Shown: positions 32,299-36,089 of the stretch, piece by piece
How positions within the stretch are numbered: position 1 is the stretch's first letter
Layout: each line of letters begins with the position of its first letter
Source: a bacterium
Lineage (GTDB): Bacteria; Zhuqueibacterota; Zhuqueibacteria; Oceanimicrobiales; Oceanimicrobiaceae
DNA length: 64,000 nucleotides
Direction of reading: 5' to 3'
Assembly (NCBI GenBank): GCA_037446635.1
Contig: JBBIIG010000016.1
Span: 14,065 to 78,064, forward strand
Position numbers and translations under genes: made by a program
The notes under the pieces: generated by a model
The model's input: only the letters and a program-made list of their open reading frames with translations
Told to the model about the DNA's origin: nothing
Databases searched by the model: none

Positions 32299-32475
32299 AT
32301 GCGTTACCTGGTGAATTTAGAAAAAACAGAAGAGGGATACGCCGTTTGGTGTCCAGGATTACCCGGATGCTGGTCGCAGGGGTGGACGGAGGAAGAAGCG
32401 CTGGAAAATATTAAAGACGCCATCCGATCTTATTTCTCTGGCTTGACGATTGACGAATTCAAGAATTTGCTTTAA
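32299..32475 (+). pseudogene. HicB antitoxin N-terminus fused to a HicA-like C-terminal tail (58 aa; not in ORF track)
   Basis: MRYLVNLEKTEEGYAVWCPGLPGCWSQGWTEEEALENIKDAIRSYF-SGLTIDEFKNLL*. Confidence 0.7.
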
Positions 32476-32483
32476 TCCCATTC

Positions 32484-32903
32484 ATGCCTGATAAAATAAA
32501 AACCTTTTCTTGGTTCGATCGACAGATCCTCAGCCTTACACTCAACTCTCCGAAAGGCAACGTCCTCGATCGCCAGATGATTTCCGAGCTGAGCGAAGCG
32601 GTCAAACGCGCGGGCTCGGATTCAAAAATAAAAGCGCTGGTGTTTGAAGGTGCGGGCGAAAATTTTTCGTACGGCGCCAGCATTCCAGAACATCAACAGG
32701 AAGTCGTCGCTGACCTGCTTTCCAAATTTCACGATTTTTTCCGGTCGCTCATTCAAATCAGCAAGCCCACTTTGGCGCTGGTGCGGGGACAGTGCCTCGG
32801 CGGCGGATTGGAATTGGCCGCATTTTGCAACTGGATTTTCGCCAGCGACGACGCGCAGTTCGGGCAGCCGGAAATCAAATTGGGAGTCTTCCCGCCGGTG
32901 GCG
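32484..32903 (+). pseudogene. Enoyl-CoA hydratase/isomerase (Dch-like), 3'-truncated
   Basis: NSPKGNVLD, FSYGAS, GQCLGGGLEL, QPEIKLGVFPP, then similarity is lost. Confidence 0.8.
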
Positions 32904-33784
32904 CGGTGCGCAATTCTGGCGTCGTCACAGGCGCTATTACTCAGAACGCGGCCGTACCCACGGTGCCGCTGCCAAGCCTTTCGTTTTCTGCAGGAGGCGA
33001 AAACGTCACGGTTACAAAGAACGGTTCGCTGGCCCTGCAGCCGGGTACATACGGTAACGTCCAGGTAAACACAAATGGCAGGTTAGAATTAGTGGATGGC
33101 GACTATTTTCTGGAAAACTTGAATCTCGACAAATCGGCGGTTTTAGTGATCGATGTTTCTGCAGGTTCGGCAACGGTGAATGTTTCGGGATTGATTGGCT
33201 TTGGTAAGAATTCGGAAGTGGAGATTACTCCGGGCGGTGAAAGTGCAACCCAGGAGGCGACGTTCAACAATTTAAATAATGGCACTTTGAAGATTCAAGC
33301 CAGCGCAAAAGTTTTGGGCTCGATCATGGCGCCGAAGGCGACGGTGGTGCTCGACAAGAACGCTCGTTTCAAGGGGGCGATTTTTGCGAAGGCCATCACT
33401 GTGAATAAGGGGGCGACTTTTTTGCATCACAGTTCGACCACCAGTTTACCGAAAGCCGCTCCGCTGGATGACGAAGCGCCGGCAGAGATCATCGCCTCGG
33501 CTCCAGCGAAATTTGAGTTAGGGCAGAACTATCCGAACCCGTTCAATCCCAGCACGACCCTTACGTTTGCGGTTCCGCGAGCCAGTGACGTTGCGCTTTC
33601 GATTTATAATCTCCGCGGCCAATTGGTTCGCAAGTTGGTTTCGGGATCCTTTGCGGCCGGCCGGCACCAGGCCGTTTGGGATGGCACGGACTCTGAGGGC
33701 GTGCGGGTCGCCAGTGGGATTTATTTTTACAGATTGCAAGCGCGGGATTTTGTCGCCGTCAAAAAGCTCTTGCTGGCGAAATAG
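32894..33784 (+). pseudogene. C-terminal fragment of a secreted protein with FlgD-Ig/T9SS-like domain; no own start or signal peptide
   Basis: LQPGTYGNV, GSIMAPKATV, QNYPNPFNP..SGIYFYRL. Confidence 0.75.
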
Positions 33785-33803
33785 TATCAAATGACCACAG
33801 GAG
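33784..33803 (+). repeat. Left terminal inverted repeat
   Basis: gtatcaaatgaccacaggag, continuing aagaag-ttata. Confidence 0.85.
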
Positions 33804-33846
33804 AAGAAGTTATAGGTTTTCTTAGGCATAACGAAGAAAATGGCTG

Positions 33847-33883
33847 ATTAAAGCTGGGAGGATTCATCGGGAATCCTCCCGGC
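33847..33883 (-). terminator. Terminator of the DUF1670 operon
   Basis: 10-bp perfect stem gggaggattc/gaatcctccc with 5-nt loop, followed by TTTAAT on minus strand; overlaps stop codon. Confidence 0.7.
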
Positions 33884-34793
33884 CATTTCCTTCGGTCCGA
33901 CTATCCCTGGCAGGTTGCTCCTCAGCAGAGCCTGCTTGCGTTTCGTCGGACGGATTTAATATAGCAGATGCAACCTCAGAATCAAGTCTATTTTGTTCTT
34001 TGAGTTTTTTGAGTTTGTCCGGTAGCAGATCGATGTATTGCTGGACCACTCGCGGCGCCAGACGGGTGAGCTGACTGATTTTGTCGAGTTGCTGAATGCC
34101 ATGTTTCCAGAGCATTTCCACGCGCTGGTAGTCGCGGATATAACGGTCGACCGATTCTGCAGCGTGGTTGGTTTTAATGGCGATGTCGGGCGTGAGATAA
34201 CCCTCGAGGTAGAGGGTGATAATCTCTCGTTTGTGAGTGATGGCGCCGGAGAGATCGTGGATGTTGCCGCGGGTCGGCAGCAGCTTGCCGTCTTTCTGGA
34301 TTTCACAGACGTACTGGCTGACGACGGCATCGCAGACGCCCAGCAGAACCGACAAATCGAGATTGGTCAAAACGGCGCCCTGGTCAAAGGCTTCATAGAC
34401 CCAACGTTCGAGGAGGCGTTTGCGCAGAGTTTTGGAATCGAAGCCGTGAGCCAAGTGCGCGATATCGTTATCGGTGACAAACGACAGCACCACCGGCTTC
34501 ATGCGAGTTTGCGCCAATGATTTGCCTTTTTGTGGGTATTCATCGACGGGCACCGCCATCCACACCAGTTGACCGTAATGGAGGTGGTGCAGGTCGTCGT
34601 CCAGAGAAGAAACCAGAAAATAATCATCGATGAGTTTGAGCAGGTCATCGATGATGGCGCGGGCGGTGACTTCGCCTTTGTCGTAGCCGTAATGGTTGAG
34701 GAAGCGGTGCAAGAGTAACTGGTGGAGACTTTTAGATTTAAGTCTCCGGAATTTCTTGAGTTGAATTTGTTCTTTGGTAAGCGGTTTACTCAT
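33864..34793 (-). CDS. DUF1670-like protein B (309 aa, multiple HTH)
   Basis: True start MSKPLTKEQ at 34793; GQLVWMAV, EAFDQGAVLTNLDL, PTRGNIHDLSGAITHK, KTNHAAESVDRY. Confidence 0.75.
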   Translation of the reverse strand: MSKPLTKEQIQLKKFRRLKSKSLHQLLLHRFLNHYGYDKGEVTARAIIDDLLKLIDDYFLVSSLDDDLHHLHYGQLVWMAVPVDEYPQKGKSLAQTRMKPVVLSFVTDNDIAHLAHGFDSKTLRKRLLERWVYEAFDQGAVLTNLDLSVLLGVCDAVVSQYVCEIQKDGKLLPTRGNIHDLSGAITHKREIITLYLEGYLTPDIAIKTNHAAESVDRYIRDYQRVEMLWKHGIQQLDKISQLTRLAPRVVQQYIDLLPDKLKKLKEQNRLDSEVASAILNPSDETQAGSAEEQPARDSRTEGNGREDSR

Positions 34794-35640
34794 GTTGGTC
34801 ACCCCCTGTGCGCGGTTGAGCAGCGGATTTTTTTCCCGCCGCCTCGCCGACTTGGGCTGGCGTGAGCAGCTCCTGCAAGCGCTCATTATCCTGTTGTTGA
34901 TAGGTTTGGTAGAGCTGGATGTACTCTCGCACCAAACGGTCGGACTTTCGAGCAATGAGGCGGATTTGATTGGGCGAGAAGTTTTGGCGGTGGAGAGTAG
35001 CCACTTGCAGGAAATCGGCCAAATAGCGTTTGACGCTGGACTCGGAGTGGTTGGTTTTGAGTTCGATGTCGGTGAAGGTGAAGCCTTTGAAGTAGAGGTC
35101 GAGGATAATAGTTTTGTGGGAGAGCCCCGGCCCCATGTCATGTTTGGTACCGCGCGTCATGATGAACTGCCCTTGTCGGCGCAGATGTTGAACATCGCGG
35201 CGAACGGTGGCGGGACTGGTGGTCAAGAGCATGGCCAGGTCTTCGTAGCTCAACAGCGCGCCCTGGTCATAGGCTTGTCGCGTCAGGCGAGCGAGGCGAT
35301 GGCGTCTGAGACCAGCCAAGCCATAATTAGCAAGGGCATCGAGATCGCTGTTCAAGTCGATGAGCTTGAGGCGAACGGTGACTTTACGGGTGAGGCGAAT
35401 GTGTTTGCCGGCGGGTTCCTCGGCGGCCACCGCCTCATAGGCAATCTCACCGGTGGAAAGAGAGACGTTGGCGTGTTCTTCGAAATAAAGCGAGAACTGT
35501 TGATAGAAGGCCTCGGCGATGATCGGAGTGAGATTGAAATCAGTGGCGAGTTTCTGGATGATAGCTGCCCGCGCCTCTTTAGACTTCAGTCGCAGGACGC
35601 CATAAGCCCCCTGCGTGCGATAACTTTGTGAACGAGCCAT
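34786..35640 (-). CDS. DUF1670-like protein A (284 aa, multiple HTH)
   Basis: Start MARSQ at 35640 after GAGGAGG; QAYDQGALLSYEDL, TRGTKHDMGPGLSHK, KTNHSESSVKRY. Confidence 0.75.
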   Translation of the reverse strand: MARSQSYRTQGAYGVLRLKSKEARAAIIQKLATDFNLTPIIAEAFYQQFSLYFEEHANVSLSTGEIAYEAVAAEEPAGKHIRLTRKVTVRLKLIDLNSDLDALANYGLAGLRRHRLARLTRQAYDQGALLSYEDLAMLLTTSPATVRRDVQHLRRQGQFIMTRGTKHDMGPGLSHKTIILDLYFKGFTFTDIELKTNHSESSVKRYLADFLQVATLHRQNFSPNQIRLIARKSDRLVREYIQLYQTYQQQDNERLQELLTPAQVGEAAGKKSAAQPRTGGDQHE

Positions 35641-35668
35641 AGGAGTTCCTCCTCTCTTGAACAGGGTT

Positions 35669-35697
35669 AATATAACTCCTATGGTCATTTGATACAA
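35669..35697 (-). promoter_or_regulatory. Promoter overlapping the right IR, driving the DUF1670 pair
   Basis: TTGTAT(35697-35692)-N17-TATATT(35674-35669), same -10 as other promoters in the window. Confidence 0.6.
35676..35695 (-). repeat. Right terminal inverted repeat
   Basis: ctcctatggtcatttgatac. Confidence 0.85.
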
Positions 35698-35726
35698 ACT
35701 TATGATAAAAGACATGAACTTGAGCC

Positions 35727-35807
35727 ACTGATTTTCACGGATGTTCACGGACGATCAATTTGAAAAAGCTTTGGCAACCCGTGTCATTAGTGTGAATCAG
35801 TGGCTCA
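35727..35807. repeat. Intergenic inverted repeat
   Basis: gagccactgattttcac ... gtgaatcagtggctc. Confidence 0.6.
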
Positions 35808-36089
35808 AAAACTTTGCTAAAAAAAACAATGTTGTCGGCTTGTAGTACTGATTTCCAATCAGTGAAGCGATCGGCTCGAAAACTTTAGATGTAAATTCGA
35901 TGCTTTCCGATAATCCGAGTTCGAGTTTTTAGCTCCCAAATTTTGCTTGACTTTTAAGCGAATATTGTTTACTTAGATTCGACATTTTTGGGCTCATACC
36001 GCGCTCTTTAACCTCTTAAGTTTTCAAGTCTTTTTAGTCATTTCGGGAGTGGAGGGTTCAAAGCGCAATTGTACTTAGAAAGGATAAAT

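Follow-up and report, generated by a model that had tools for sequence, protein, structure and literature searches.

The DUF1670 unit and its setting

The window analysed here is a stretch of 64,000 nucleotides (nt) from a bacterium of the family Oceanimicrobiaceae, phylum Zhuqueibacterota (assembly GCA_037446635.1, contig JBBIIG010000016.1, positions 14,065 to 78,064 of the forward strand). Near its middle, directly behind a gene for a secreted protein, lies a compact unit in which inverted repeats enclose two genes of the DUF1670 family. We describe this unit as a site-specific insertion sequence (IS) that appears to enter its target genes just before the last codon. Its features are listed below in window coordinates; C3 and C52 are contigs of the same genome that carry relics of the element.

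32792..33784, plus strand: target gene; its secreted product has a C-terminal sorting domain for type IX secretion (Pfam).
33779..35702: the intact DUF1670 element, whole unit, with limits based on comparison with relatives.
33779..33784, plus strand: left terminal 6-mer AAATAG, with which the element supplies a replacement last codon and stop; the left repeat starts at its G.
33784..33803, plus strand: left inverted repeat GTATCAAATGACCACAGGAG, found by the repeat finder; the ends of relatives show the same core.
33853..33883, no strand assigned: GC-rich hairpin of 13 pairs, called as a terminator; it overlaps the geneB stop and is retained in the C3 and C52 relics.
33864..34793, minus strand: geneB, a DUF1670 paralogue of 309 amino acids (aa), with a winged helix and a helix-turn-helix (HTH) in its model.
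34786..35640, minus strand: geneA, a DUF1670 paralogue of 284 aa, with an HTH_DeoR match of 25.8 bits at residues 130-164.
35676..35695, plus strand: right inverted repeat CTCCTATGGTCATTTGATAC, found by the repeat finder.
35696..35702, plus strand: 7-nt right-end spacer AAACTTA, part of the element outside the repeat; the same 7 nt stand at the C52 relic.
35703..35708, plus strand: 6-mer TGATAA, in the slot that holds the displaced host last codon and stop in relatives.

The original prediction, which had been made from the sequence of the window, described 20-bp inverted repeats with 19 of 20 bases matching, and the repeat finder recovers them: the arms are 20 nt long, 95% complementary (19/20 bases) and 1872 nt apart. 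The remaining inverted pairs in the 3.5-kb region are shorter or poorer, and by our own arithmetic the chance expectation for such an arm pair in 3.5 kb is about 3e-4. The proposed extension of the repeats to TTATA across a 6-nt insert on the left is legible in the sequence. The two co-oriented genes of 284 and 309 aa are also confirmed in their coordinates; both lie on the minus strand and have 8 nt in common, which read ATGAGTAA on the coding strand (34786-34793). Their assignment to DUF1670 (PF07900; curated cut-off 25 bits) is borne out by Pfam matches of 194.9 bits for geneA and 200.3 bits for geneB, both over model positions 3-220 of 220, and the two proteins are 31% identical over 237 aa. 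As had been noted, the left edge falls on the last base of the neighbouring gene's stop codon: the G at 33784 is both the final base of that TAG and the first base of the repeat. The limits of the unit had been set at the repeats, which stand, but the full unit extends 5 nt further left and 7 nt further right.

The unit had further been credited with its own promoter and terminator. The terminator is upheld by the hairpin call at 33853-33883, which may act in both directions, for geneB and presumably also for the host gene. The promoter is not: a sigma-70 scan calls none for geneA, and a weak TTTGTA-18 nt-TATATT, legible over the right repeat, is the sole promoter-like sequence before that gene. 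The non-coding parts of the element are limited to 33785-33863 (about 80 nt) and 35641-35702 (62 nt), and an Rfam scan of the element gives no match at E <= 1. The genome contains only this one intact DUF1670 pair. Compared with the closest fetched copy (L028), the ratio of nonsynonymous to synonymous substitution rates is 0.081 for geneA and 0.046 for geneB, a sign of purifying selection. The window copy is intact and probably an old resident.

Copies, relics and distribution

A closed chromosome of 6.5 Mb from the same class carries six scattered copies of the unit that are 99.68-100% identical over 1855-1881 bp. Homology between these six ends within a few bases of the repeats. The same chromosome holds a second DUF1670 family of about seven or eight copies with different repeats (ends GGAAAATTTTCCGG and CCGGAAATATTTCC), a left 6-mer AAATAA and a spacer TAAACGT. 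Inverted repeats also flank distant DUF1670 pairs that are only 25-34% identical, so the expectation that other pairs would have them is borne out too.

The window's own genome contains degraded copies at unrelated loci. Contig C3 has a 257-bp relic with 75% identity to the left end and the same start, TAGTATCAAATGACC; C52 has a derivative of about 350 bp with both ends; and C1 has a 147-bp fragment of geneB. A pattern search added a solo left repeat on C19, with 19/20 bases, directly after another sorting-domain gene. The 11-nt repeat core has 8 exact occurrences in this genome, against about 2 expected by our own arithmetic, and 6 of the 8 sit at element ends or at the TAG stops of sorting-domain genes. 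Such genes can be recognised by their N[YF]PNPF motif; in 7 of the 102 found in this way the stop is TAG and leads into 12-20 nt of the repeat, as part of an element or a relic.

Some of these places have a more complex structure. On the minus strand of C19, near 45640, the solo repeat runs directly into a gene fragment for the final strand of a different sorting domain (..EFVQTKKVTVMK*), an arrangement that looks like a rearrangement or deletion between two occupied genes. Short scars at C1:278247, C28:54399, C20:31864 and C20:11315 consist of sorting-domain genes ending in TAG plus 12-18 nt of the left repeat, and then unrelated DNA. At C1:278247 the following open reading frame (ORF) encodes an HNH-type motif (..CPNHHREAH..).

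Homologues are numerous: 1287 public proteins match geneB at E <= 1e-3, and a HMMER search of 1.84 billion cluster representatives yields 1264 clusters (50% identity) at E <= 1e-3, from genomes labelled with many phyla. For 88 of the 120 best geneB homologues the longest contig is at most 3 kb, the signature expected because repeats break assemblies. DUF1670 is present in 12 of 41 relatives and in 28 of 151 sampled genomes of the phylum, with a load that ranges from one pair to at least nine pairs per genome. The two-gene unit is recently active or multi-copy across genomes labelled KSB1, Ignavibacteriota, Poribacteria, Gemmatimonadota, Zixibacteria, Cloacimonadota and others. A tblastn search of geneB against plasmids returned no match. 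At the level of sequence comparison, the unit is a real mobile element of a multi-copy, patchily distributed family. The idea of a self-contained IS-like element with the DUF1670 pair alone is supported by the closed-genome copies, the relics, the inverted repeats around distant pairs and the two-gene make-up of 59 of 69 related elements. Of the further copies and empty sites that it predicts, copies and relics at unrelated loci exist and empty sites were not found.

Junctions and point of insertion

Junctions were extracted by the repeat core from 40 loci of species genomes and 80 of metagenomes. The layout is constant in these 120 loci: host gene, 6-mer, left repeat, geneB, geneA, right repeat, 7-nt spacer, 6-mer and unrelated flank. 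The left 6-mers of 86 candidates are AAATAG (63), AAATAA (8), CGATAG (4), CAATAG (3), AGATAG (2) and other (6). At 89 right junctions the spacer is AAACTTT in 33, AAACTTA in 18, AAACTAT in 13, TAACCTA in 5 and another sequence in 20. The right 6-mer at these junctions begins with AAA in 56, with AAG in 19 (as against once on the left), with an Arg codon in 8 and with TGA in 2; its second triplet is TAA in 48, TAG in 17, TGA in 15 and no stop in 9.

In 65 of the 86 candidates, translation of the seven codons 5' of the left 6-mer gives [KRQ][KR]xxxx, which corresponds to the sorting domain's last strand. The left-flank profile has T at -2, -5, -8 and -11 and AAR AAR at -18 to -13, with a 3-nt periodicity, and beyond the right 6-mer the position profile of the 120-locus set shows no conservation. 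Among the 102 sorting-domain genes of the window's own genome, the last residue is K in 59 and R in 30, KK is seen once, and all three stops are in use. The C-terminus of the target protein, ..VKKLLLAK*, matches the pattern of these genes, and its current last codon AAA and stop TAG fall within the element's 6-mer; a homologous gene of a relative ends ..KLAITK*, with AAG TAA.

Ownership of the two 6-mers can be read from 17 near-identical copies, namely six of family 1 and eight of family 2 (eight left and eight right ends) in the closed genome and three in another genome (98.5-99.2% identical). Among these the left 6-mer is constant, and the right one varies in both stop and codon (AAG in 4/17), which shows that the left 6-mer is the element's and the right 6-mer the host's original last codon and stop, displaced 1.9 kb downstream. 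The element inserts without target duplication; the left and right 5-mers are equal in only 30 of 60 unique copies with both junctions. The insertion point, as read from the junction statistics, lies within the reading frame, directly 5' of the last codon (normally Lys or Arg), mostly in type IX secretion tail genes. The element replaces the host's last codon, its stop and presumably its terminator, and the protein is left unchanged or altered in its last residue only. The strict last-codon target, the supplied codon, stop and terminator, the asymmetric ends and the lack of target duplication are all features beyond the original prediction.

One locus is stacked, and reads ..MLLMK codons, AAATAA, family 2, TAAACGT, AAATAG, family 1, AAACTTT, AAATAG, flank; and 6 of 83 right junctions adjoin the 6-mer and left repeat of another element. 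The model predicts such stacking, because the 6-mer of a resident copy behind the same gene would again serve as a target.

Several other readings of the junctions were rejected. Flanks with hairpins resembling repetitive extragenic palindromes, which might have been a separate kind of target, are, in the loci studied here, the abutted ends of the second DUF1670 family or its miniature derivatives. Both a 2-bp TA duplication and a 5-bp AAATA duplication are ruled out, since near-identical copies have mismatched 6-mers. An entry point behind the last codon and ahead of the stop, which would make the right codon part of the element, is likewise ruled out, given that the right codon varies (AAA/AAG) in 4 of the 17 copies and the left never does.

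Loci L113 and L117 share a left flank and CGATAG with L115 and differ from it on the right (CGATAG gagg.. versus CGCTAA tctg..); the mismatch could stem from recombination between copies or from chimeric assembly.

Correspondence of element and host codons

When the left and right codons of the 60 copies are paired, they fall into the classes K/K (48), R/R (5), Q/K (2), stop/stop (2), K/H (1), stop/D (1) and K/stop (1), and neither K/R nor R/K occurs. Positions 1, 2 and 4 of the 6-mers agree in nearly all left/right pairs, with free variation at positions 3, 5 and 6. This co-variation is unlikely to stem from selection after insertion, because natural genes use both K and R. The pattern suggests that strand exchange may need partial identity between the element end and the target.

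The DUF1670 proteins

The elements for which both ends are present number 69 and range in size from 1699 to 2105 bp, with a median of 1855 bp; in 59 of them the count of ORFs of at least 200 aa is exactly two. This leaves no space in the element for a further protein, and there is no sign of one. Fused forms occur among the 150 best of the 1264 cluster representatives: about 22 have two DUF1670 repeats (500-660 aa) and four have three (P0132, P0135, P0136 and P0147; 930-952 aa, with no further Pfam domain). A Pfam scan of 11 of these representatives finds DUF1670 and HTH only, plus one EamA match that looks like a gene-call fusion. The original prediction had also considered a derivative that had lost a known transposase. 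This option is not supported, as the relatives examined have no third gene and the scanned fusions add nothing beyond DUF1670 repeats, HTH and the EamA match. The repeat cores differ by protein clade (GGTCAWWTGACC, GGTATCAGGTGATACC, TGCCAWWTGGCA, CCGGAAAWWTTTCC) and are palindromic in every case, which would fit binding by a dimer.

Structural models of both proteins were built from alignments of 38 A and 41 B sequences, with identity down to 25-30%. For A and B, the predicted local distance difference test score is 79.6 and 76.1 and the predicted template modelling score is 0.47 and 0.49. Each model consists of three N-terminal helices, a beta hairpin, a long helix, a winged helix, a loop and two further helix-turn-helix units. 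It has two to four short strands and no strand-rich core of the RNase H type. Complex prediction of A with B gives a borderline median score of 0.31, against a mark of 0.32. In the structure alignments the winged-helix match is NiaR, with Z 6.1 and 6.6 (the maximum being 6.6), and the HTH matches are TrpR-like proteins, Mor, sigma region 4, small terminase and the HTH of resolvase; B aligns with Tn3 and Sin resolvase in their HTH parts only (Z 5.3-5.4). The ESM Atlas returns HTH_23-type clusters only, at 0.77-0.81, which is below the trustworthy level.

Seventeen residues are at least 93% conserved in both paralogues (79 sequences, A numbering): R17, K21, G64, R112, R118, Q126, L130, D134, R163, G164, H175, K176, I179, H198, R205, Y206 and Y240. 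A near-invariant series of R, H, K, H, R and Y spans 44 residues within the predicted HTH helices. The conserved columns contain no His-hydrophobic-His, and the proteins have no Y1_Tnp or resolvase match in Pfam.

Proposed mechanism and rival explanations

On balance we favour the view that the window contains one intact site-specific insertion sequence, in which the DUF1670 pair is predicted to bind the palindromic repeat cores and likely performs the insertion itself. In this scheme A and B would act together as a recombination complex; the two are coupled in translation, and relatives often have them fused. A dimer would sit on each end, at a palindromic core of the GGTCAWWTGACC type, and the two ends would be joined or synapsed so that the spacer abuts the 6-mer. 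The complex would recognise the end of a sorting-domain gene and carry out a conservative strand exchange just 5' of the target 6-mer, relying on partial identity of the 6-mers. Candidate active-site residues, near-invariant in both paralogues, are R163, H175, K176, H198, R205 and Y206 (A numbering). The DUF1670 pair is likely the recombinase, and the enzyme of the element is probably of a new kind.

More tentatively, and with rather less confidence than we place in the element itself, we suggest that DUF1670 could be a new recombinase class made of HTH modules only, with a catalytic Tyr beside an Arg on a DNA-binding helix, by analogy with the winged-helix tyrosine domains of type II topoisomerases. 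The A/B pair would insert without duplication, with the site specified partly by the element's own 6-bp copy of the target, and could in this way occupy the last codons of dozens of secretion-tail genes in one genome without burdening the host.

A number of observations weigh against the favoured interpretation. No empty site was found in relatives or in two public sequencing runs, and because of this the insertion point rests on junction statistics. In relatives, the left flank of the window copy yields paralogous sorting-domain matches only; the right flank yields a transporter orthologue on a short contig of the same genus, without usable conserved synteny. One flank from the closed genome has no match in the relatives of that genome. 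The two runs, in which 16% of the words are present, contain no joint that skips the element. Both are labelled as hot-spring metagenomes and hold low-depth contigs of a related strain, mostly 90-95% alike; one run contig of 465 bp crosses the left junction and has small deletions within the repeat. The Arg-type sample behind the codon correspondence is small (5 copies, two of them with a common left flank), and copies are related by descent. Old relics in the own genome have the left codons AGA, AGG, CGG and CGA before TAG, which may stem from Arg-type elements or from drift, now that this codon serves as the functional last one. The window copy itself violates codon matching, with AAATAG on the left and TGATAA on the right. 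The TGATAA at 35703-35708 is possibly a displaced CGA or AGA TAA that has since mutated, possibly a natural double stop, and possibly the left 6-mer of a decayed older resident; TGATAA and TAATAA are used as left 6-mers in some DUF1670 subfamilies.

The protein evidence also counts on this side. The models are of moderate quality, and residues 1-100 are barely covered by the fold tests. The searches recognised neither a catalytic fold nor a catalytic motif: matches in Pfam, NCBIfam, PHROGs and PADLOC are of HTH type or absent (nothing near a cut-off among the NCBIfam models, which include those naming IS transposases; 'transcriptional regulator' families only in PHROGs; nothing in PADLOC). Profile searches of PDB sequences find nothing below E 0.08. 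Foldseek has no PDB match at E <= 1e-3, the best being the winged helix of MntR at 0.04, and the structure aligner, run on 48,161 chains, lists winged-helix and HTH matches only, none of which reaches Z 8. The fold searches list no catalytic domain of a nuclease, recombinase or transposase, with residues 1-100 barely covered.

Since both proteins model as stacks of winged-helix and HTH units with no recognised catalytic fold, the element may be mobile and yet non-autonomous. The DUF1670 pair would then recognise the ends and the target and may have a regulatory role, and an enzyme of the host or of another element, such as a Xer-type tyrosine recombinase, would cut and join. Insertion without duplication suits a conservative recombinase. 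Some integrative elements exploit Xer, with a dif-like site of their own and insertion at dif, and an HTH factor reportedly activates Xer for a satellite phage. We regard this explanation, the main rival, as less likely. The same unit is active or multi-copy across many labelled phyla, so that any helper would need to be nearly universal. The target lacks Xer-like palindromic arms, with only the 6-mer and the upstream coding context conserved, and the targets of the element are gene ends, not one chromosomal site. In addition, His and Tyr residues are near-invariant in both paralogues, which would be unusual for mere operator binding.

It is quite improbable, in our judgement, that the window copy is an immobile, fixed and possibly domesticated cassette whose proteins are transcription regulators and whose repeats are operators. 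The single intact pair in the genome, the overlap of the right repeat with the sole promoter-like sequence before geneA, and the related strain in the two public runs, which has element sequence at the same left junction, would all suit such a cassette. However, the ORFs are intact and under purifying selection, the repeats still match at 19/20 bases, and elsewhere the family is plainly mobile. Insertion sequences are usually autoregulated via their terminal repeats, so that such regulation is no argument against mobility. More improbable still is cut-and-paste of the IS630/Tc1-mariner kind, with a duplicated TA target and an acidic catalytic triad concealed by the divergence of the DUF1670 fold. 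The two have several HTH domains and terminal repeats of about 20 bp in common; in most copies a TA is present in the TAG of the left junction and again no more than a few bases from the right repeat; and D99, E133, D134 and D149 are invariant in the A family. Yet under a TA duplication the restored target would have no stop at the window and at C52, and all other hosts would need TAA followed by ARTRR, whereas the right 6-mers carry TAA (48), TAG (17) and TGA (15). Neither model has the strand-rich RNase H-like core and no transposase family is matched, although a missing fold match does not exclude the fold.

Neighbourhood of the window copy

In Pfam the target gene matches Por_Secre_tail (29.0 bits; cut-off 27), FlgD_ig (46.6 bits) and CHU_C. 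Its ORF, 32792-33784, starts with GTG and is overlapped by an enoyl-CoA hydratase ORF at 32484-33068 that covers only positions 5-140 of the 251 of its model; either the hydratase gene is truncated or the start of its neighbour is overcalled. Further upstream, a 58-aa ORF (32299-32475) matches the HicB-like antitoxin family (34.2 bits; cut-off 27).

The right-hand neighbour of the element is a CitMHS_2 transporter. The right flank contains a 24-nt inverted repeat (35720-35743 and 35785-35808, 83% complementary), and a segment of about 80 bp at 35776-35857 recurs in relatives with dozens of matches of 76-98% identity, in G009, G002, G004 and G001 among others. The repeats at 35720-35857 are a separate small repeat family.

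Comparison with known systems

To our knowledge, all described insertion-sequence families are defined by a few enzyme types: DDE, DEDD, HUH, and serine or tyrosine recombinases. A full-text literature search found no mention of DUF1670 or PF07900, which is a Pfam family without an assigned function. IS892, an unclassified insertion sequence with two ORFs, might belong to it. The IS110/IS1111 elements resemble the DUF1670 element in that they are site-specific, make no target duplication, have asymmetric ends with inset repeats, and show a sequence relation between end and target. They possess a DEDD transposase and a long bridge RNA, however, whereas the DUF1670 element has no match to such a domain and only about 80 and 62 nt of non-coding DNA; neither a DEDD gene nor a guide-RNA region of 100-250 nt is found in it. 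The IS200/IS605 and IS607 elements also insert without target duplication, and they do so beside a short sequence resembling the element's other end. They are without the long terminal inverted repeats of the DUF1670 element, which in turn has no HUH/Y1 or resolvase match.

Tn7, directed to attTn7 by TnsD, likewise uses a safe harbour at the 3' end of a conserved gene and leaves the product intact. It inserts downstream of the stop with a 5-bp duplication and relies on five proteins, among them DDE and restriction-like nucleases. Unlike Tn7, the DUF1670 element would enter the frame before the last codon and rebuild the end of the gene, and it has two HTH proteins only. With IS630/Tc1-mariner elements it shares short terminal repeats bound by a paired-HTH region (in its own case as predicted), a compact build and a fixed target of short length. 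IS630/Tc1-mariner elements, however, encode a single DDE transposase and duplicate a TA, and the DUF1670 element has two genes, with neither a recognised DDE fold nor a duplication. Compared with the R-K-H-R-H/W-Y set of the tyrosine recombinase domain, the DUF1670 residues are far more compact, and there is no match to that domain in Pfam or the fold searches. We would place the element nearest to IS110/IS1111 and IS200/IS605 in behaviour and nearest to Tn7 at attTn7 in strategy, and it appears to share none of their enzyme features.

DUF1670 is a widespread family that has none of the known IS enzyme types by sequence or fold search and yet is associated with insertion of single-base precision. 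If the DUF1670 pair is the enzyme, it would represent a new recombinase class with a short target partly specified by the element, which would bear both on programmable integration and on the chemistry of DNA insertion. If the reaction is carried out by a host enzyme, the element would offer a new way of hijacking one. Either way, the element follows a so far undescribed 'harmless' strategy, in which it enters ahead of the last codon and brings its own codon, stop and terminator as spares, and the 3' ends of type IX secretion substrate genes stand out as hot spots for insertion and scars.

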